From: Promethearchaeota archaeon
GTDB taxonomy: Archaea > Asgardarchaeota > Thorarchaeia > Thorarchaeales > Thorarchaeaceae
Length of the DNA stretch: 41,960 nt
Reading direction: 5' to 3'
Assembly (NCBI GenBank): GCA_014728035.1
Contig: WJMJ01000072.1
Location: forward strand, 1 to 41,960
Position numbers and translations under genes: made by a program
Shown here: in pieces, positions 34,311 through 41,960 of the stretch
How positions within the stretch are numbered: the first letter of the stretch is position 1
How the letters are laid out: each line of letters opens with the position of its first letter
The notes under the pieces: generated by a model
What the model saw: the letters and a program-made list of their open reading frames with translations, nothing else
Told to the model about the DNA's origin: nothing
Database searches by the model: none

Positions 34311-35894
34311 ATGAAGAAATTACTCATTACCGACACAACTTTACGAGATGCACATCAGTCTCTTATCGCGACCCGAATGCGTACTGAACACATGCTCCCA
34401 ATCTGTGAAAAAATCGATAAGATTGGATACCACTCTCTTGAGATGTGGGGTGGGGCTACTTTTGATAGCATGATGCGGTTCCTTGATGAAGACCCTTGGG
34501 AACGCGTTGAACTGCTCAAAAGTGCTATGCCTAAAACTCCATTCCAGATGCTTCTTCGCGGTTCTAATGTCGTTGGATACAAACAATATCCCGATGACGT
34601 ACTCGAGGCCTTTGTAGAAGAAGCAGTGAAGGTGGGCATTGATATTTTTCGGATTTTTGATGCTCTTAATGATGTTCGAAACATGAAGGCGGCGATGAAG
34701 TTTGTAAATCGGGAGGGAGGTCACACGCAGGCTAGTATCAGTTACACAACATCTCCTGTACATACAATAGAGAAATTCGTAGAGACCGCAAAGGAATTAG
34801 CGGCACTTGATGCAGACTCAATATGTATCAAAGACATGGCGGGGTTGATAACACCTAAAGCTGCAGCTGATCTTGTTACACGTCTGAAAGAAGAGGTTTC
34901 GATACCAATTCAATTGCATTCCCATTATACAAGTGGAATGGCATCCATGGCGTATCTGAAAGCAGCTGAGGTTGGAGTGGATGTTGTAGACTGTGCCATA
35001 TCGTCATTATCCGGAGCGACTTCTCAACCTGCAACAGAATCGATTGTTGAGAGTCTTAAAGGAAGCTCCCGTGATACAAAGCTGAACGTGAACCTGTTGG
35101 CAGACATTGCGTCATATTTCCGAGATATCAGAAGAAAGTATGCTCAATTTGAAGGAAGCTTGCAAGGTGTGAATCCTCAGGTGTTGGTCTTCCAGATTCC
35201 TGGTGGAATGTTATCTAATCTGGACAATCAACTTCGGGAACAGGGAGCACTTGATAGATACGATGAGGTGTTAGAAGAAGTACCACGAGTCAGAGCGGAC
35301 CTTGGTTATCCCCCACTAGTTACACCTTCCAGTCAGATAGTTGGAACGCAGGCTACATTGAATGTTGTCACTGGAGAACGATATAAGATGGTTCCGCACG
35401 AGGTAAAACAATACGTTAGAGGATATTATGGGCGGCCACCAGCACCTATCGACCCGGAGATCAAGAAGCTGATTATTGGAGATGAAGAACCTTTGGATGA
35501 TCGTCCTGCTAGTCTGCTCAAACCAGAACTACCCAAGGCGAAAGAAGCACTCAAGGATATTCCTCATGAACGTCGCGACCTTATTTCTTATGCACTCTTT
35601 CCTCAATATGCTCTGGATTTTCTGAAAAGAAAAGCTGCTAGAACTACCATGGGTGAGATTACTGAAGAACACGAGATTGCTCTTATTGCAGCAGTTCTAC
35701 ATAGTAGCAGACAGGCGGGTGCAGGTGTAGTGAGCACACATGGATTAGGTGGAGCTTGGAGTCAAGGAGCACGCGAAGGACTTCATGACGGCAGAGTAGT
35801 TACTCTTACCGGGCAATGGGAACGAGCATCATCTCGGTGGAGTTCTGTAGGAAGAAAACGATTGATGAAGTCAAGACAACAGGGGGGTCCATAA
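34311..35894 (+). CDS. Pyruvate/oxaloacetate carboxyltransferase (transcarboxylase 5S / PycB / OadA-like) without biotinyl domain, with C-terminal docking-type extension
   Basis: DTTLRDAHQS, EMWGGATFD, FRIFDALND, CIKDMAG, HSH metal motif, QIPGGMLSN, PPLVTPSSQIVG. No AMKM motif. Confidence 0.93.
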   Translation: MKKLLITDTTLRDAHQSLIATRMRTEHMLPICEKIDKIGYHSLEMWGGATFDSMMRFLDEDPWERVELLKSAMPKTPFQMLLRGSNVVGYKQYPDDVLEAFVEEAVKVGIDIFRIFDALNDVRNMKAAMKFVNREGGHTQASISYTTSPVHTIEKFVETAKELAALDADSICIKDMAGLITPKAAADLVTRLKEEVSIPIQLHSHYTSGMASMAYLKAAEVGVDVVDCAISSLSGATSQPATESIVESLKGSSRDTKLNVNLLADIASYFRDIRRKYAQFEGSLQGVNPQVLVFQIPGGMLSNLDNQLREQGALDRYDEVLEEVPRVRADLGYPPLVTPSSQIVGTQATLNVVTGERYKMVPHEVKQYVRGYYGRPPAPIDPEIKKLIIGDEEPLDDRPASLLKPELPKAKEALKDIPHERRDLISYALFPQYALDFLKRKAARTTMGEITEEHEIALIAAVLHSSRQAGAGVVSTHGLGGAWSQGAREGLHDGRVVTLTGQWERASSRWSSVGRKRLMKSRQQGGP

Positions 35895-36418
35895 TGAGTC
35901 CCAAGTACGAAGCATCAATTGATGATAGAATTTACGAGGTTGACGTGAAGACACTTGATGAAGGAGGTCTTCTTATCGTAAAGATAGGAGAACAGAGTTA
36001 TTCAATCAAGACGACACAGAATGAGGATGGGACTTGGACCGCAAATGATACGACTTCCGACTATACCATCGATATTGTGAAACGAACTGGCTCAAAGATT
36101 GAATTGGAAATTAATGGCGAGCAACGTGTATTAGAATGGGGGCGAAAAAGATCCCAAGACACAATAGCTCCGACAACAACCTCGTCGAAAAGTGGTCCAA
36201 AGGAAGAGGGTGGTGTTTACCCACCAATGCCTGGAAAGATTACTGAAGTTCACGTCGAAGTGGGTACCGAAGTTTCAAGTGGTGAAACAGTATGTATCCT
36301 AGAAGCAATGAAGATGTTCAATGAACTCAAATCTCCTAAAGATGGGATTGTGAAAGAAGTTAATATCAAACAAGGTTCAATGGTTACACCTACAGATTTG
36401 CTGATATTGATTGAATGA
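35894..36418 (+). CDS. Biotin carboxyl carrier protein with N-terminal beta-rich domain
   Basis: PMPGKI...LEAMKMFNE biotinylation site. ATG overlaps the upstream stop (TAATG). Confidence 0.93.
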   Translation: MSPKYEASIDDRIYEVDVKTLDEGGLLIVKIGEQSYSIKTTQNEDGTWTANDTTSDYTIDIVKRTGSKIELEINGEQRVLEWGRKRSQDTIAPTTTSSKSGPKEEGGVYPPMPGKITEVHVEVGTEVSSGETVCILEAMKMFNELKSPKDGIVKEVNIKQGSMVTPTDLLILIE

Positions 36419-36431
36419 AGGTCTGATACAA

Positions 36432-37598
36432 ATGCCAGATGTAAATGTGATTGGAGTTGGAATGACACCTTTTGGAGTGCTTGAAGATGGGATAACTGAT
36501 TTAGCAATCCAGGCTGCCATGGAAGCTATGATGGACTCGTCAACACTAGAATACTCTTTTGACCGGCTTGTCGTAGGCTCTCAGAATCCGGATGAGTTCA
36601 CAGAAAAGGGTCATTTATCTACCCTACTTGCAGATCGTCTTGGTCTGGTTCCTGCAGGTGCAACTCGTGTTGAAACAGGCCCATCTTCTGGCTCTAGTGC
36701 TTTTGAAACTGGTTATGCTATGGTTGCATCTGGACTAGCAGAACTCGTTCTTGTAATCGGTGTCGAGAAAATGTCTGCTGTGAAACGTGGCATTGCTTCC
36801 AAAATCCTAGCAAAGATGATGAGTTACGATAACGAAATTCCTTATGGTGCAACTCCTGCTGCTCTTGGTGCTATGGTTGCTCGAAGATATATGCATGATT
36901 ATGGTCTTACTCGTGATGAATTATCTCTGGTTCCGGTGAAGGCTCACAAAAACGGTGCGAAAAACCCGCTTGCTCATTTCCAAAAAGAAGTGACCGTTGA
37001 AAAGGTAAGTAATAGTCGAATTATTGCAGATCCTCTCACCCTATACGATAGTTGTCCTACATCAGACGGAGCGGCTGCAGTTGTGATTGCATCAGATAGT
37101 ATAGTTCGTCAATTAGGCCTGAAAGATCAAGCTATCAAGGTTGTAGGTATTGGACATGGTACTGATTATCATGCAGTACAACATCGCTTGTCGCTAACAT
37201 CTTTCTATGCAACAATTCATGCTGCAAACCTTGCTTTTACCATGGCTGGCATCGAACCTGAGAATGTTGATATATGTGAGATTCATGATGCATTCTCAAT
37301 TCTTGAATTGGTCAATTTGGAAGATTTAGGTTTGGCAGAACGTGGAAACGCAATAGAATCAATCAAGGATGGCACTTCAGAGGTTGGTGGGTCAATGCCT
37401 GTTAATCCAAGTGGGGGTCTCAAATCCCGAGGCCATCCTACAGGAGCTACCGGTATAGCCCAGATTCGTGATTTGGTTCTACAATTACGTGGTCTCTATC
37501 CCACACCCCTCCAAGTAGATGATCCTGAAATTGGACTTGCCCACAATATTGGGGGTTTTGGAAACAATATGCTTGTTACAATTCTAAGTAGAAATTAG
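36432..37598 (+). CDS. SCP-x-type thiolase-family protein lacking the acylation-site cysteine
   Basis: IGVGMTPFG, GVEKMS, NPLAHFQ, PTSDGAAA, EIHDAF, VNPSGGLKSRGHPTGATG, HNIGG. VETGPSSG occupies the position of the usual VExACASG. Confidence 0.9.
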   Translation: MPDVNVIGVGMTPFGVLEDGITDLAIQAAMEAMMDSSTLEYSFDRLVVGSQNPDEFTEKGHLSTLLADRLGLVPAGATRVETGPSSGSSAFETGYAMVASGLAELVLVIGVEKMSAVKRGIASKILAKMMSYDNEIPYGATPAALGAMVARRYMHDYGLTRDELSLVPVKAHKNGAKNPLAHFQKEVTVEKVSNSRIIADPLTLYDSCPTSDGAAAVVIASDSIVRQLGLKDQAIKVVGIGHGTDYHAVQHRLSLTSFYATIHAANLAFTMAGIEPENVDICEIHDAFSILELVNLEDLGLAERGNAIESIKDGTSEVGGSMPVNPSGGLKSRGHPTGATGIAQIRDLVLQLRGLYPTPLQVDDPEIGLAHNIGGFGNNMLVTILSRN

Positions 37599-37833
37599 TT
37601 ACACGTTTCTAGTAAAATTATCAGAATATCGAATTATTGTAACATTTGTACAAAGTTTCCTTATTAATAATCATTTCTTCTTTTTCACTAGAATGAACAA
37701 GGTTTGACAAGAGCACAATTCACTAGGGACAAAGAATTGTGGTCTAATTAAAGGGGTCTGCTTTCGAAAAACACCTTGGTTCTATCGTTAGATGACTCCT
37801 TTTCAGTCGGATATCATAATGGAGTAAAACAAA

Positions 37834-39000
37834 ATGCCAGAAGGACTCGCAGTTCTAAAATGGGATGATGAACTGGGACCCGTGGTTACCTCCAAAACTC
37901 CCAAGAGTCTACAAATAGGTCTGGACCCGACAACTTCAATGCGGGTCTATGGTATTGCCACTCTTGGAGAAACTGAGGAATCACAGAAGCCCGGATTCAA
38001 TTCACTTGCTTTTGATGAGTTTAAGCTCGCGGTGTATTACGGCGGGCTCAATATGCATTTGAAGGGACAACCATCAATGGTTTTCCTAGTTCTTGGTCCT
38101 CATGAGGACCCTGACGTATACAAAGATGCACTTCCTGAAATTGCAACACAGATTTTCTTGAATTTGGACGATGACCAATATACGAAAATGGTTCCAAAGC
38201 TGTACAAGCAGATTTCCAGGTACACCCAGATGACGCCGGAACAAAGACAAGCGTCTATATTGAGTGATCCTGTACGAAGAACACTTCTTCAGACCCTAAT
38301 TCGAAATGGAACCGTCCAAAATGCGGACTTGGAACAGATGATTTTCGAAGAGGTAGGGAAGAAGATAGATGTAGATATGGTTCTACGCCCTCTTGTCAAG
38401 ATGGGTATCATCGCGACTGGTTGGGTAGAAGGACTTTCTTCTGAAGTCGTATATCTCACTCGTGCGATTCTTATCTTGAGAAAGACTCCAATAGAAACCC
38501 TGCGGCAAGTAAAGGCAGGAAAGATTTCCACAGCAGTTGCAAAACAGTTTTTGGAAACTACAAAACGATATCATCGTGAATATGTGTCCAAGCTTAGAAA
38601 AGACCTCTCTGAAACTATATGGAATGAGGCTGAAGAGCTTGCAAAACACATGCTTGATTTTCAAGTTTATGACTTACTACAAATTCTTCGAGAAGGACCT
38701 CAAGTTTCTGAAGATCTTCTCGGAATGCTTGACATCACTCAGGCTGGATTGAGAAAACTGCTAAAGAAACTAGAGAAGAATGGAATTCTCATCACTGTTA
38801 ATGATGAAGAAGGTAGGCAACATGTTCTACTGAAGAGCAGTCCAGAAGTTGTGACTGTCTATCCTGAGTGGCTGATTGAACGAACTGTGTCTCTGTATAA
38901 CGCAGAGGAAATTCCGAGTCGCCAAGCATTACATTACTTGGAGGTTCTCAAACAGTTCCATCCATCACAGGCCACCAAAATGGTTACGGGGGTAGAGTAA
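37834..39000 (+). CDS. Longin/uDENN-like N-terminal domain plus two predicted winged-helix segments (NPRL2-like architecture)
   Basis: N-terminus GLAVLKWDDELGPVVTSKTP. wHTH-like ILSDPVRRTLLQTL...LRPLVKMGII and YDLLQILREGP...GLRKLLKKLEKNGIL. Confidence 0.65.
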   Translation: MPEGLAVLKWDDELGPVVTSKTPKSLQIGLDPTTSMRVYGIATLGETEESQKPGFNSLAFDEFKLAVYYGGLNMHLKGQPSMVFLVLGPHEDPDVYKDALPEIATQIFLNLDDDQYTKMVPKLYKQISRYTQMTPEQRQASILSDPVRRTLLQTLIRNGTVQNADLEQMIFEEVGKKIDVDMVLRPLVKMGIIATGWVEGLSSEVVYLTRAILILRKTPIETLRQVKAGKISTAVAKQFLETTKRYHREYVSKLRKDLSETIWNEAEELAKHMLDFQVYDLLQILREGPQVSEDLLGMLDITQAGLRKLLKKLEKNGILITVNDEEGRQHVLLKSSPEVVTVYPEWLIERTVSLYNAEEIPSRQALHYLEVLKQFHPSQATKMVTGVE

Positions 39001-41960
39001 ATGGATAACAAATTTAAACTTTCAATTATGATTTTCCTAGCAGTACTTCTTATTCTTCCAGCAAGTAATGGGACTCCTATTGCAAACACATCTAATGCTG
39101 ATGGATTCACAATGGATTCACCATTATCAATGCATAATGGAGAAATGGAGATTGCTGAGGTACAAGATTTAGCAAATTGGTGGAACTCGACCTATATCTA
39201 TCGTAGGTATTTCAACTTTACAGAACCTGGAGTTTCTGACAGAACTTTGGTTCCTGTTCATGTTGACCTGACTTTCGAGGATGGCCATTGTTATGATGGT
39301 TCCCTTCGAGCACTCTACTATGATAATAGTTCAGAAACATGGACAGAGCTTCCATTTCAAGTCTGGAATGTATCTTATTATTCTGCTGAATTTATTCAGT
39401 CAGCAACCGTCACATTCTCAGTCAATGTCACTCAAGGTACTCTTGATTGGAATTACTATGTATATTATGCAAAGGTTGATGTCGGAACTGTCAGTTATCC
39501 TGACTACTATCCTTTTGTCTACAAGAGCTATACCTTCTCACTTATCGAAATGGTCTCATATTACGACAACAACAATTACTATGTCGAGATGTGGGATGAT
39601 GCTAACGACTTATGGGATGATCCCAGAAATCTAGATTCAGAATGGTCAAGTGGAACTGTGTACGTTTCCAGCGTTCCAGATGGTACGTTAAATAAACTGG
39701 AGAACGCTAGGTATGAACCAAATTCATACGGTGGCGGAGACTTCTATGGATTCTATGCGGTTTATTCAAATTATCCAATGGCTGTTCAAATGGGTCAGGG
39801 TGATGAGGGTAGCAATCCTGCAATCAACGACTGGTTCCCAGGCGTTGACCAACTAGGTGTTGGAGTAGGTCACGAGTTTATCCTCGGTGGTGTAGAAGGT
39901 TTTGATGATAGAAACGAGGGGACTTATTGGATTCAAGCTATGGAGAACAATACAGAAATTTATGAATGGGATGCAACTGGTCTTACCAGTGACTTCTCAC
40001 TTTGGGAATTCTTTGATGGCTCAGCTGTTACAGAATGGCCAGCAGTTCTTGATGCTGGTGAATATATTGCAAAGCGACAAGTCGACTACAATGTTATTAC
40101 CATGGTCAATTCAACAAATCGAATATCATTCCGTGCTGGTGACGTTGATGCTTCTTTTGCAAGAGATGTATGGGGATGTTATTCCGCAGTTAATGGTCAA
40201 TTAGCTGGAGAAGAATTCTACATTATTGATATGGGTAACTCACGAGATTACATACGAGTAACCAATCTTGGTGATGCTACCGTGGATGTAGATTGGCGTC
40301 GAAACGATGGGTCTGGTTGGACTTCATGGACTACTATTTCTATTGCAGCAAATAGCTCATCTTTGATTGCTCGTGGCGTCGCATCTGACTCGAATCCCGA
40401 GGATGTAACTCATATCCGTGGTGAATCTGGTGCTATGCTTATGGTTGAGGGTCTATATAATCCTACAACCCAGGCAGACTCTGGAGATTGGATGCCAAGC
40501 CTAACAGGTGATCGTTTTGGTACCAACTTCAAGGTATGGGGTATCAGTCAATACAAGTTCTTCATAGTTGCTCAGGAAGATGCTCTGGTTGACATAACCG
40601 GATATAACAATGGCCAACTTGAAATTCCCGCAGGAGGTTGCGGTGTCTTTAGAACACTTTCTTCCTCTATGTCTTTGTATCATATTAATTCAAATGCTAC
40701 TATCAGTGTTGTGGATGTCGGTCGGTTCTCGACTAGCGCTCCTTATGCGCCTTCCGGAGATACTGGATACGGTTGGATGGTTCCATCTTATCATTCTGAT
40801 ATTGATCAAGCTGGACTAATTGCTGAATATGGTGAAGAAGTCCATCTATTTGAGTTTGATATTACAATTGTGGATGTTGATGGACAACCCATAGAAGGAG
40901 TAGCTGTCAGCTTACATAATGCTACAACTGGTACTCTTTGGACAGACGATCAGGGTGGCACTAGAACTGGAATAACCGATGCAACCGGGCTTGTTATTTT
41001 TGAAGGTCTTGATAATGCGACCTACGAAATACAAACAAGTATTGATGCAAAAGAGTGGCTAGGTGGATTTACAGACTATTCTGCAGTTTGGGTTAGAAAT
41101 GACTCCAATCATGAAATAACTGGTTCTGTGACTCCGGTTACAATCATCATGCCTATGGGTAGTTTCGATATTCATGCTACTGACCTGATGGGTGATGATT
41201 TAACAAAGACCGCTGATGAAACACTCTATTTGCGTGCTTCAAATGATACCAGTGTTACAAATGATGGTACTACTAATTACATATATACATCAGAAGTGAA
41301 TAGTACAGGATGGGCAAGTTTCTATAGGATTCCAGTGGATGATTATAGTTTCTTTGCAAGATATTCTGGTCCTGTTGAATCCTATGATTATGACGACCTT
41401 CTGAAATTCGCTAACTGGTCACTTTCCACAACCGATTTTGGTAACACTCCAGCATTCTATTGGGACATTCCTCTAGTTACTTTCACCATCAATGTCCCGT
41501 CTTGGGACGACCAGATGGTTGAGGATGCTACCATCACTGTAAACAACTCTATTGATGACGATGTATACAAAATCACAGAATACAGTGATGCAGATGGAAA
41601 CTTTACATTCTATCGTGTTGTTAATGGAACATGGAATTTGGACGTGTGGATTGCTGATGACTATGATGCAACACAACTGGCTAGAAATAATACCGAATCA
41701 ATTATTGACTTACAAGGTTACACCGAACGAGTCATCGAGATTCCCATATCTAGGTTAATTGTGAATGTCCAAACTGGACCAAATACATTTGTTCAAGGTG
41801 CACAGGTCAATGTGACTCTAGATGGAAGCGGAGCTCTTGTTGCACAGGGAACTACAAACAGCACTGGGCATGTTACATTCTTCTTTATTCACGCAAACAT
41901 GACCGATCCATATTCTGTTGGATTCGACCTGTCGGTGATTGCAGGTATTGAAAGTGCAAC
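39001..41960 (+). CDS. Very large secreted/cell-surface glycoprotein (partial, at least 986 aa; runs off the window)
   Basis: Read by hand and open from ATG 39001 to the end of the window. Signal peptide MDNKFKLSIMIFLAVLLILPA, WWNSTYIYRRYF (DUF2341-like start), internal repeats, CarboxypepD_reg/Cna-B-like units (DVDGQPIEGVAV...TDATGLVIFEGL), many N-x-S/T sequons. Absent from the ORF track because no stop occurs in the window. Confidence 0.92.
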   Translation, partial: MDNKFKLSIMIFLAVLLILPASNGTPIANTSNADGFTMDSPLSMHNGEMEIAEVQDLANWWNSTYIYRRYFNFTEPGVSDRTLVPVHVDLTFEDGHCYDGSLRALYYDNSSETWTELPFQVWNVSYYSAEFIQSATVTFSVNVTQGTLDWNYYVYYAKVDVGTVSYPDYYPFVYKSYTFSLIEMVSYYDNNNYYVEMWDDANDLWDDPRNLDSEWSSGTVYVSSVPDGTLNKLENARYEPNSYGGGDFYGFYAVYSNYPMAVQMGQGDEGSNPAINDWFPGVDQLGVGVGHEFILGGVEGFDDRNEGTYWIQAMENNTEIYEWDATGLTSDFSLWEFFDGSAVTEWPAVLDAGEYIAKRQVDYNVITMVNSTNRISFRAGDVDASFARDVWGCYSAVNGQLAGEEFYIIDMGNSRDYIRVTNLGDATVDVDWRRNDGSGWTSWTTISIAANSSSLIARGVASDSNPEDVTHIRGESGAMLMVEGLYNPTTQADSGDWMPSLTGDRFGTNFKVWGISQYKFFIVAQEDALVDITGYNNGQLEIPAGGCGVFRTLSSSMSLYHINSNATISVVDVGRFSTSAPYAPSGDTGYGWMVPSYHSDIDQAGLIAEYGEEVHLFEFDITIVDVDGQPIEGVAVSLHNATTGTLWTDDQGGTRTGITDATGLVIFEGLDNATYEIQTSIDAKEWLGGFTDYSAVWVRNDSNHEITGSVTPVTIIMPMGSFDIHATDLMGDDLTKTADETLYLRASNDTSVTNDGTTNYIYTSEVNSTGWASFYRIPVDDYSFFARYSGPVESYDYDDLLKFANWSLSTTDFGNTPAFYWDIPLVTFTINVPSWDDQMVEDATITVNNSIDDDVYKITEYSDADGNFTFYRVVNGTWNLDVWIADDYDATQLARNNTESIIDLQGYTERVIEIPISRLIVNVQTGPNTFVQGAQVNVTLDGSGALVAQGTTNSTGHVTFFFIHANMTDPYSVGFDLSVIAGIESA

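Follow-up and report, generated by a model that had tools for sequence, protein, structure and literature searches.

The 388-aa protein P0001 of this thorarchaeal genome probably acts as a cytoplasmic adaptor or regulator that joins a giant surface protein to a longin-fused Arf-like GTPase, and it would belong to an Asgard-wide family of about 360-390 aa built on the NPRL2/NPRL3 plan; we assign this reading a probability of roughly 0.6. The linkage of its gene to the genes of a giant type-I surface protein and of a longin-fused Arf-like GTPase is conserved, and the link of P0001 to a small GTPase by gene context is strongly supported. GATOR1/SEACIT, the complex with GAP activity towards RagA/Gtr1, has NPRL2 and NPRL3 (Npr2 and Npr3 in yeast) as its longin subunits, which act together with DEPDC5/Iml1.

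P0001 is predicted to combine a longin domain with two winged helices

P0001 is encoded by ORF 37834..39000 on the plus strand of the window, i.e., of the whole 41,960-nt stretch of DNA that was analysed, with ATG at 37834 and TAA at 38998-39000. The N-terminus translates as MPEGLAVLKWDDELGP, and its start, MPEGLAVLKWDDELGPVVTSKTP, is an exact match to the letters quoted in an earlier sequence-only reading of this DNA, confirming that the 388-aa ORF and its translation are real. We found 192 homologues in Thorarchaeota at 65-93% identity, and a search with the family profile was positive in each of the 17 other genomes of the same family and in 100 of the 121 genomes of the phylum. As had been predicted from the sequence, public annotation labels the orthologues 'hypothetical' or 'ArsR family', with some HxlR or MarR. 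Upstream of the gene, a gap of 250-300 nt is kept in orthologous loci; the promoter and terminator scan used bacterial sigma-70 rules, which are uninformative for an archaeon. The features of the locus are listed in Table 1.

Table 1. Coordinates of P0001, its predicted domains and motifs, and the adjoining features in the window.
Feature	Coordinates	Strand	Basis or remark
235-nt intergenic spacer, presumed promoter region	37599..37833	+	Between thiolase ORF end (37598) and P0001 start (37834)
Gene for the 388-aa longin + 2x winged-helix protein (P0001)	37834..39000	+	ORF/translation, homologues, AF2 pLDDT 92
Longin domain, aa 1-133	37834..38232	+	AF2 secondary structure, VIA-align, conservation
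W10-D11-D-E-L-G15-P16 motif ('WD' + 'GP'), b1-b2 turn	37861..37881	+	Invariant in 115 orthologues
b4-b5 loop GGLNMHLKG with K77, aa 70-78	38041..38067	+	Probable place of the NPRL2 Arg-78 loop, judged from secondary-structure position only
Winged helix 1, aa 134-217	38233..38484	+	AF2 H135-144, H146-158, H163-174, H180-189, strands 193-217
Helical linker, aa 218-275	38485..38658	+	AF2, helices 233-256 and 258-274, both long
Winged helix 2, aa 276-342, ArsR/SmtB-like fold	38659..38859	+	VIA superposition, sub-cut-off Pfam
C-terminal helices with conserved YPEWL motif, aa 343-388	38860..38997	+	AF2 H346-356, H362-374, H377-387
5' part (986 aa) of giant surface-protein gene, translationally coupled	39001..41960	+	Runs off contig, continues on C77

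The AF2 model of P0001 (pLDDT 92.1, pTM 0.85) establishes the predicted fold and domain order, namely a longin domain, winged helix 1, a helical linker, winged helix 2 (wH2) and a helical tail, with a bb-a-bbb-aa longin topology followed by two aaaa-bb winged helices. The two wHTH-like segments recognized in the sequence-only reading are thus recovered in the model as four-helix-plus-hairpin units at about aa 134-217 and 276-342. Within the longin domain, the modelled elements are b1 (4-11), b2 (15-22), a1 (32-43), b3 (54-59), b4 (64-69), b5 (79-87), a2 (99-109) and a3 (116-128). Conservation was counted over 115 near-full-length orthologues, the wider family being sampled by 56 representatives. 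The longin domain is the most conserved part (73/133 positions invariant) and wH2 the least conserved domain (9/67); 36/84 positions are invariant in winged helix 1 and 18/38 in the C-terminal helices, and the linker is weakly conserved (4/58). The net charge is -6 for the longin domain, -2 for each of wH2 and the C-terminal helices, and slightly positive for winged helix 1 and the linker.

The longin domain and the overall plan resemble NPRL2 and NPRL3

The longin fold proposed earlier for the N-terminus is supported by the AF2 topology and by structural comparison. Among 48,161 PDB representatives, the top VIA match of this domain was human NPRL2 (8fw5_B: Z 11.2, 123 residues, rmsd 2.8 A), with identical values for the NPRL2 chain 7t3b_B (Z 11.2, 123 residues, rmsd 2.8 A). 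The Lokiarchaeota longin 8yqg ties with NPRL2 (Z 11.0-11.9), yeast Npr2 (8adl_S) reached Z 10.5 and the remaining longins 9.8 or less, with C9orf72 at 8.4; the lead of NPRL2 over other longins is only about 1-1.5 Z units. When the whole P0001 model was used, NPRL3/NPRL2 chains of GATOR1 led the Foldseek list (E 1.8e-4 to 9e-4), and the alignments spanned 299-447 columns, reaching beyond the longin domain. NPR2 clusters were the first named family in an ESM-Atlas shape search (TM 0.37, 206 residues over aa 1-337); the search of the ESM Atlas by features returned nothing beyond P0001's own unnamed Asgard clusters.

In NPRL2 and NPRL3, the longin domain is accompanied by at least two winged HTH repeats (Levine et al. 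2013, PMC3747258). P0001 has both elements, the repeats as two aaaa-bb units (aa 134-217 and 258-342). The likeness extends to a size of about 380 aa, to the order of an N-terminal longin domain followed by repeated aaaa-bb winged helices, to a GP motif at the start of strand b2 and to the connection with an Arf/Rag-type small GTPase. P0001 differs from NPRL2/NPRL3 in that it has no detectable sequence similarity to the corresponding Pfam families: neither NPR2 (PF06218) nor NPR3 (PF03666) matched P0001 at E <= 10, both were absent from the 25 most-matched families listed for 56 relatives, and their profiles gave no match at E <= 1 in the whole genome. Pfam, NCBIfam and PDB phmmer searches with P0001 gave weak wHTH matches only and none for the N-terminal domain; a whole-protein profile of 56 sequences matched only winged-helix proteins in the PDB, and a longin-only profile had no match. 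Further differences are the coupling of the P0001 gene to that of a giant surface protein, a linked GTPase that Pfam places with Arf and that has a longin/roadblock domain of its own at the N-terminus, and C-terminal winged helices that are ArsR-like rather than specifically NPRL2-like. With the C-terminal half folded alone, NPRL2/NPRL3 were not among the matches listed by Foldseek and by both VIA searches, which comprised ArsR/MarR, PF0095, ESCRT-II and Nse/MAGE-type tandem winged-helix proteins; therefore, a specific relationship to the NPRL2 C-terminal domain could not be demonstrated. The NPRL2-like architecture of the sequence-only reading thus holds for the longin domain, the domain order and the whole-model Foldseek ranking, and does not extend to a sequence match with NPR2/NPR3.

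The longin domain carries a WD motif and the GP motif of GAP longins

KWDDELGP and the P0001 start are common to all 115 near-full-length orthologues, and given this invariance we rejected a chance origin of the N-terminal motif. Among the 56 representatives of the wider family, the W is present in 52, the D in 47, the G in 54 and the P in 16. G15-P16 is placed at the start of strand b2 in the AF2 model. A GP motif has been reported in C9orf72, SMCR8, FLCN and NPRL2, and its placement in P0001 exactly matches the description for GAP longins (PMC12290439). In addition, the W-D-x3-G-P spacing equals that of W33-D34 ... G38-P39 in C9orf72 (numbering from PMC12290439), whose W33-D34 residues lie at the ARF1 interface, and the GTPase linked to P0001 is likewise Arf-like. 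In C9orf72, the W33G/D34K exchange almost completely abolishes ARF1 GAP activity (PMC8213707). Despite the shared WD-x3-GP, we rejected membership of P0001 among C9orf72-type longins, since its C-terminal part consists of winged helices, not of a DENN domain. C9orf72, which forms an ARF GAP complex with SMCR8 and WDR41, is also a weaker structural match (7o2w_A: Z 8.4, 126 residues, rmsd 3.2 A), and no counterpart of its SMCR8-like arginine-finger partner was identified for P0001.

The sequence-only reading had proposed to look for an equivalent of the catalytic NPRL2 arginine finger. Judged from secondary-structure position, the b4-b5 loop of P0001 is the probable place of the NPRL2 Arg-78 loop; it carries a Lys, and nothing is conserved there in the wider family. 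The GGLNMHLKG loop is nearly invariant in the orthologues (residue 77: K 107/115, R 7/115, N 1/115) and represents an insertion specific to them, which most of the 56 representatives lack.

The P0001 gene is linked to genes for a giant surface protein and an Arf-like GTPase

The ATG of the giant gene at 39001 directly adjoins the P0001 stop codon. The giant protein has an N-terminus resembling a signal peptide, as well as Ig-like/CarboxypepD_reg domains. Its last 1340 aa, encoded by C77:1-4023 of the same genome, include a TM helix and some 240 aa of acidic tail; the GTPase gene comes next (C77:4254-5135). In orthologous loci, the giant gene is single and encodes 2219-2367 aa. In the Thor orthologues, the longin-wH gene is followed after 1-3 nt by the giant gene and then by genes for an Arf-family GTPase (263-293 aa) and for small and coiled-coil proteins; the same order was reconstructed in the present genome from contigs C38 and C77. 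The linked GTPase matches Pfam Arf (1.8e-12), not Gtr1_RagA, and is longin-fused. Moreover, in 9 representative clusters the whole longin-wH module is located after the TM segment as the C-terminal part of giant membrane proteins, and an Arf-like GTPase gene is adjacent to both of the module-fused giant genes that we re-examined.

Of 20 family loci that span diverse Asgard families, 12 have a GTPase of the linked type (E < 1e-35) within 6 kb; it is next to the family gene in 11 cases, 8 of which show it immediately downstream in the same orientation. The 20 control regions gave 0 strong and 3 weak GTPase matches, and related genomes are non-independent samples, so that such synteny counts overstate significance. 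Arf-like GTPase genes are found beside or near all three P0001-family paralogues of the present genome. Gene context thus upholds the connection to a small GTPase that the sequence-only reading had drawn; by Pfam, this GTPase is of the Arf-like and not of the Rag type.

Co-folding of P0001 with the GTPase, a check proposed in the sequence-only reading, reached the mark with a score of 0.43 (best of three controls, 0.00), in runs that shared at least 85% of contacts and with a partner pLDDT of at least 78. The mark is reached by 58 of 80 solved complexes and by 2 of 110 mismatched pairs; at scores of 0.60 or less, it is reached by only 7 of the 80 solved complexes, plus both passing mismatches. 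This support is weak, and because longin-GTPase complexes have already been solved, the pass may reflect likeness only.

The coupling of the two genes could also mean that P0001 serves the giant surface protein only, for instance by chaperoning, anchoring or assembling its acidic tail in the cytoplasm, without acting directly on the GTPase. Two observations would agree with such a role: the P0001 stop abuts the giant ATG in orthologues as well, and relatives carry the module fused onto their giant proteins, at the cytoplasmic end. However, the GTPase pairing persists without the giant gene in one lineage, where the GTPase gene directly follows the longin-wH gene, and it also holds in most of the 12 positive loci, in other Asgard families. 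The most conserved surface is the WD/GP face of the longin domain, which contacts the GTPase in eukaryotic GAP longins, and the co-fold, with the reservation given above, points the same way. We consider a role confined to the surface protein highly improbable.

Winged helix 2 resembles ArsR/SmtB repressors

The sequence-only reading had set ordinary transcription-factor matches against its own proposal; these were the best matches for the C-terminal half (ArsR and tandem winged-helix proteins) and not for the longin half. P0001 might be a transcription factor in which the ArsR-like wH2 binds DNA and the longin domain serves as a sensor or partner domain, possibly in GTPase-responsive transcription. 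In VIA, wH2 superposes on the ArsR/SmtB repressors SqrR, Rv0081 and HlyU (Z 8.9-9.2, 75-83 residues, rmsd 1.8-2.3 A). ArsR-type families match P0001 weakly, with 17.8 bits for HTH_20 (cut-off 27), 17.5 for HTH_5 (22) and 18.2 for NF033788 (55), the sub-threshold HTH_20/HTH_5 matches lying at aa 279-320; in the wider family, HTH_20 was found in 10/56 members and HTH_5 in 9/56 (best E 2.6e-8). Lys and Arg are frequent in helix 3 of wH2 (K305, R307, K308), as they are in most orthologues, and the gene stands first in its operon behind the 235-nt spacer. Transcription factors may also control Asgard GTPase systems (Tran et al. 2024, PMC10933270). On the other hand, wH2 is the least conserved domain (9/67 invariant positions vs 73/133 in the longin domain), the exposed positions of helix 3 vary among orthologues and the net charge of wH2 is -2. 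In relatives, the module forms the tail of giant type-I proteins and is thereby held at the membrane, a position that would be awkward for a DNA-binding repressor, and tandem winged helices bind protein in NPRL2/3 and ESCRT-II. Taken together, we regard a transcription factor as unlikely. The identity of a plain ArsR/SmtB repressor, which would be a free-standing dimeric winged helix of about 100 aa, was rejected: the Pfam/NCBIfam scores are below cut-off, only aa 258-342 of 388 are ArsR-like, the likeness in fold (Z about 9) concerns one of four parts of P0001, and the N-terminal longin domain is foreign to ArsR/SmtB proteins.

Proposed role of P0001

For the adaptor or regulator that we favour, the longin domain would provide a platform for the linked GTPase and thereby control or read its nucleotide state. 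Contact could be made by pairing with the N-terminal longin/roadblock domain of the GTPase, or by the WD/GP face on its G domain. The winged helices would bind proteins, like those of NPRL2-NPRL3 and ESCRT-II, and may attach the complex to the surface protein's cytoplasmic tail, which would result in a module running from surface protein through adaptor to GTPase. P0001 could be a GAP (perhaps via K77), a GEF or a non-catalytic scaffold. The fully specified version, a prokaryotic receptor and small-GTPase signalling module in which the glycoprotein tail recruits P0001, the longin domains pair with each other, the WD/GP face mediates switching and K77 possibly replaces the arginine finger, is speculative, and we rate it as unlikely. 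If true, the module would be an extant analogue of the ancestor of the longin GAP complexes that involve GATOR1, FLCN and C9orf72.

Significance for Asgard GTPase systems

Asgard archaea possess dozens of eukaryote-like small GTPases and longin/roadblock proteins, and regulator-GTPase pairs are mostly unassigned. An Asgard NPRL2-like family has already been published (Liu et al. 2020/2021, bioRxiv 10.1101/2020.10.19.343400, Fig. 5c); as presented there, its members have a longin domain and an NPRL2-type C-terminal region and occur in most Thorarchaeota, a description that P0001 fits. In the text consulted, no linkage to a longin-Arf-like GTPase or to giant surface proteins is described. The NPRL2-like family is thus already in the literature, and P0001 adds a further member, an independent confirmation and the gene context. 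Genome layout generally carries no information on regulator-GTPase pairs (Tran et al. 2024, PMC10933270). The P0001 family is an exception, in which an NPRL2-like longin protein, one longin-fused Arf-like GTPase and often a giant surface protein are kept together by synteny and fusion. It therefore offers a small, defined set of proteins with which to ask at the bench whether the GAP/GEF function of longin domains is older than eukaryotes.

The P0001 gene and its relatives

The gene of P0001, a longin protein with two winged helices (wH1 and wH2), is separated from an upstream thiolase gene by a 235-nt spacer, and directly behind its stop codon comes the start codon (ATG at 39001) of a very large ORF, which extends beyond the contig end. 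The sequence-only reading had proposed this ORF and a characteristic N-terminal motif. The ORF is real, and KWDDELGP is invariant in 115 near-full-length orthologues, save for one K-to-R exchange at K9; the motif is thus a conserved feature and not due to chance.

Coordinates of P0001, its predicted domains and the linked genes
Feature	Position	Strand	Details
P0001 gene	window 37834..39000	+	ATG 37834, TAA 38998-39000; 388 aa, N-terminus MPEGLAVLKWDDELGPVVTSKTP
Longin domain	aa 1-133		b1-b2-a1-b3-b4-b5-a2-a3 (AlphaFold2)
wH1	aa 134-217		four helices plus hairpin (AlphaFold2)
Two long helices	aa 233-274		AlphaFold2
wH2	aa 276-342		AlphaFold2
Three terminal helices	C-terminal end of P0001, after wH2		AlphaFold2
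Giant gene, first piece	window 39001-41960		
Giant gene, second piece	G000:C77:1-4023 (locus L016)		last 1340 codons
Orthologous GTPase	C77:4254-5135		293 aa; 79% identity to protein P0273; Pfam Arf 1.8e-12
Paralogue loci	L003 635-2580 (G000:C37) and L017 918-6429 (G000:C44)		proteins of 368 and 379-395 aa
Upstream trio	window 34311-37598		5S-type carboxyltransferase (HMGL-like + PYC_OADA), biotin carrier, thiolase-fold protein

A word-indexed search returned 192 homologues of P0001 at E <= 0.001. The best 120 of these are nearly all 386-393 aa long, with 65-93% identity to P0001, and come, where a source is named, nearly all from 'Candidatus Thorarchaeota'; the listed homologues are called 'hypothetical protein' or 'ArsR family' or 'HxlR/MarR family' regulator. 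These names place the source of P0001 among Asgard archaea of the Thorarchaeota type. Matches to the family profile turned up in 100 of the 121 genomes sampled from the phylum, as many as 12 in one genome. In other genomes, several members have a single in-frame stop (TAG, TAA or TGA) within the matched stretch of the profile search (for example G038:C1:2038413-2039501 and G001:C1:233038-234123). The 644-649-aa 'open frames' that we checked arise when a family gene and its GTPase neighbour are read as one frame across a single stop.

The predicted fold of P0001

Pfam and NCBIfam yielded only sub-threshold winged-helix matches at aa 279-336 (HTH_20, 17.8 bits against a cut-off of 27), and phmmer against the PDB found MarR/ArsR-type proteins only, all at E > 0.002. 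For the first 130 residues no match was found, even with a 56-sequence profile. Pfam NPR2 and NPR3 matched none of the family members checked, and searching the whole genome with these two profiles returned nothing.

An exhaustive HMMER search (E <= 0.001) gave 187 representative clusters, from which we aligned 56 diverse relatives; with this alignment, AlphaFold2 produced a confident model of P0001 (mean pLDDT 92.1, pTM 0.85). Both winged helices anticipated from the sequence are present in this model. The eukaryotic architecture with which P0001 had been compared was also correctly described, as NPRL2 and NPRL3 combine an N-terminal longin domain with 'two or more repeated aaaabb winged HTH domains' (Levine et al. 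2013, PMC3747258).

A Foldseek search of the PDB with the whole model placed GATOR1 chains on top (8fw5_C, 9o5d_D, 9o5a_H/C, 9v0j_A/B and 7t3b_B/C; E 1.8e-4 to 3e-3), in alignments of 299-447 columns that run well past the longin domain; their low global TM of ~0.26 points to a different domain packing. An unbiased VIA-align search of 48,161 representative chains with the whole model ranked human NPRL2 first (8fw5_B, Z 11.2, 123 residues, rmsd 2.8 A), tied with the longin domain of a Lokiarchaeota Roadblock-Longin protein (8yqg_B, Z 11.0) and followed by yeast Npr2 (8adl_S, 10.5), VAMP7 (9.8), Lst4 (9.7), FLCN (9.0) and C9orf72-SMCR8 (7o2w_A, 8.4). As judged from the model, NPRL2 is the best solved match, by a margin of only ~1-1.5 Z units over other longins. 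Shape searching of the ESM-Atlas returned the family's own unnamed Asgard clusters first (TM 0.67-0.86), and the first named family was 'Nitrogen permease regulator 2' (query TM 0.37, 206 residues over aa 1-337).

Folded alone, the C-terminal half (aa 134-388; pLDDT 95) resembled generic winged-helix proteins such as PF0095, ESCRT-II, MarR and ArsR, the best match being to wH2 (Z 9.0, 82 residues, rmsd 1.8 A), and no specific NPRL2/3 match for it was among those listed by Foldseek and VIA-align. The proposed likeness to NPRL2 hence holds, in the predicted structure, for the longin fold and for how the domains are ordered; the winged helices have no diagnostic value.

A longin-regulated transcription factor, which the abundance of Lys and Arg in helix 3 of wH2 would suit, is an unlikely reading of P0001. 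The buried hydrophobic residues of this helix are kept but its exposed positions vary, and wH2 is the least conserved domain, with 9/67 positions invariant among orthologues against 36/84 in wH1 and 73/133 in the longin domain. Its net charge is -2 (longin -6, wH1 +1, linker +2, C-terminal helices -2). Conservation, charge and helix-3 pattern together favour protein binding over sequence-specific DNA binding.

Conserved motif and loop of the longin domain

According to a 2025 survey (PMC12290439), a 'GP' motif closes the b1-b2 loop or opens b2 in the GAP-type longins C9orf72, SMCR8, FLCN and NPRL2; it occurs also in some Asgard longins, and NPRL3, FNIP2 and other longins lack it. In the model of P0001, G15-P16 open strand b2, and W10-D11 lie three residues upstream, a spacing equal to that of W33-D34 and G38-P39 in C9orf72. 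A W33G/D34K double mutant of C9orf72 lost its GAP activity toward ARF1 almost completely (PMC8213707). Among the 56 family representatives, the W is found in 52, the D in 47, the G in 54 and the P in only 16.

In the orthologues, the b4-b5 loop, in which we presume Arg-78 of NPRL2 to lie, holds an almost invariant insertion, GGLNMHLKG. It contains K77 (K in 107, R in 7 and N in 1 of the 115 orthologues). In the wider family the loop is short, with no basic residue conserved in it; most of these relatives carry Arg or Lys at position 13 instead, within WD[DE]RxG. On these grounds a canonical arginine finger is not demonstrated. The arginine finger of NPRL2, Arg-78, is located 'on the loop of the NPRL2 longin domain' (PMC8534245).

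Linkage to an Arf-like GTPase

Orthologous Thorarchaeota loci share one gene order. The thiolase gene is followed, after a gap of ~250-300 nt, by the longin-winged-helix gene (388-389 aa); 1-3 nt further on begins a giant gene, of 2219-2367 aa in complete cases, and behind it come a gene for an Arf-family GTPase (263-293 aa) and more genes. The orthologous GTPase, on the contig that continues the giant gene, carries the motifs GxxxxGKT, DLGGQ and NKQD. By eye, the sequence of its N-terminal ~115 aa suggests a bb-a-bbb-a roadblock/longin-like pattern, with which it would fit the 'RB/longin-GTPase' class placed between Rag and Arf (Tran et al. 2024, PMC10933270). Tightly packed genes for proteins of 186, 122, 488 and 113 aa, none assigned to a family, follow it (L016 4254-7909). 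The 488-aa product is a coiled coil with weak ATG16/PspA-type matches, and a matching 117/461/113-aa series follows the GTPase at L018, a Thor locus without the giant gene.

The genome encodes two paralogues of P0001 (27% and 21% identity). One paralogue gene shares 4 nt with the start of a gene for a 280-aa longin-Arf-like GTPase; the other lies ~3 kb upstream of a gene for a 498-aa Arf/Roc-type GTPase. An HMM of the GTPase domain (strong match, E < 1e-35) was run on 20 family loci, drawn from diverse families in the phylum, and on 20 control regions chosen arbitrarily in six of these genomes. A strong match lay within 6 kb in 12/20 family loci, adjacent in 11 of these and, in 8 of the 11, immediately downstream in the same orientation; among the controls there were 0 strong and 3 weak matches. 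Since related genomes are not independent, these counts are descriptive and not a test. This linkage, like the fold, is established here, and gene context is the strongest functional evidence for P0001. In MK-D1, GTPase genes are generally outside operons with longin genes (Tran et al. 2024, PMC10933270).

Co-folding P0001 with the GTPase scored 0.43 against 0.00 for the best of 3 controls, graded 'weak support'. In calibration the mark was reached by 58/80 solved complexes and 2/110 mismatches, and passes at a score <= 0.60 comprised only 7/80 solved complexes and both passing mismatches. The runs shared at least 85% of contacts, with a partner pLDDT of at least 78. The pass may reflect likeness only, because longin-GTPase complexes have already been solved.

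The upstream trio is conserved, and in every Thor locus seen it keeps its synteny with the longin gene across a gap of 235-300 nt; it is probably an unrelated metabolic operon.

Linkage and fusion to giant surface proteins

The giant gene is split by the contig end, and its two pieces jointly encode at least ~2326 aa. The protein has a signal-peptide-like N-terminus, Ig-like/CarboxypepD_reg domains and many NxS/T sequons. Towards the C-terminus lies a single TM helix (aa 1072-1100 of the C77 part), and the cytoplasmic tail of ~240 aa is extremely acidic.

In 9 representative clusters, the whole longin-winged-helix module is fused C-terminally to giant proteins, beginning ~80-115 residues past a single C-terminal TM helix. 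These are type-I proteins of 1300-2550 aa with the module as cytoplasmic C-terminus, such as P0198 (2548 aa, TM 2068-2098, module 2181-2535), P0140, P0153, P0161, P0162, P0169 and P0172 (fusion loci include L060 and L061). Two re-examined fusion genes are each adjoined by a gene for an Arf-family GTPase of ~306 aa. Other relatives have C-terminal extensions instead (P0175, 1020 aa; P0212, 1046 aa). That P0001 serves the surface protein only seems very improbable to us; in one Thor lineage lacking the giant gene, the GTPase gene directly follows the longin-winged-helix gene.

Relation to known proteins and proposed role

P0001 is a work-alike of NPRL2 in architecture and not its orthologue, given the negative NPR2/NPR3 profile searches and the unproven arginine finger. 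Liu et al. (bioRxiv 10.1101/2020.10.19.343400) reported many NPRL2-like longin fusions. Together with the Asgard GP-motif longins (PMC12290439), this means that the central idea of the sequence-only reading, an NPRL2-like small-GTPase regulator, had already been published. In the literature examined, as far as it was accessible, we found no earlier description of a conserved pairing of the family with one GTPase type, nor of its synteny or fusion with giant surface proteins.

P0001 is a further member of an already published NPRL2-like Asgard family. Our best reading, to which we give a probability of about 60%, takes it for an NPRL2-like adaptor or regulator in the cytoplasm, built of a longin domain and winged helices, that would connect the giant surface protein with an Arf-like GTPase that is longin-fused and dedicated to this role. 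Its binding, and its GAP or GEF activity, are inferred.
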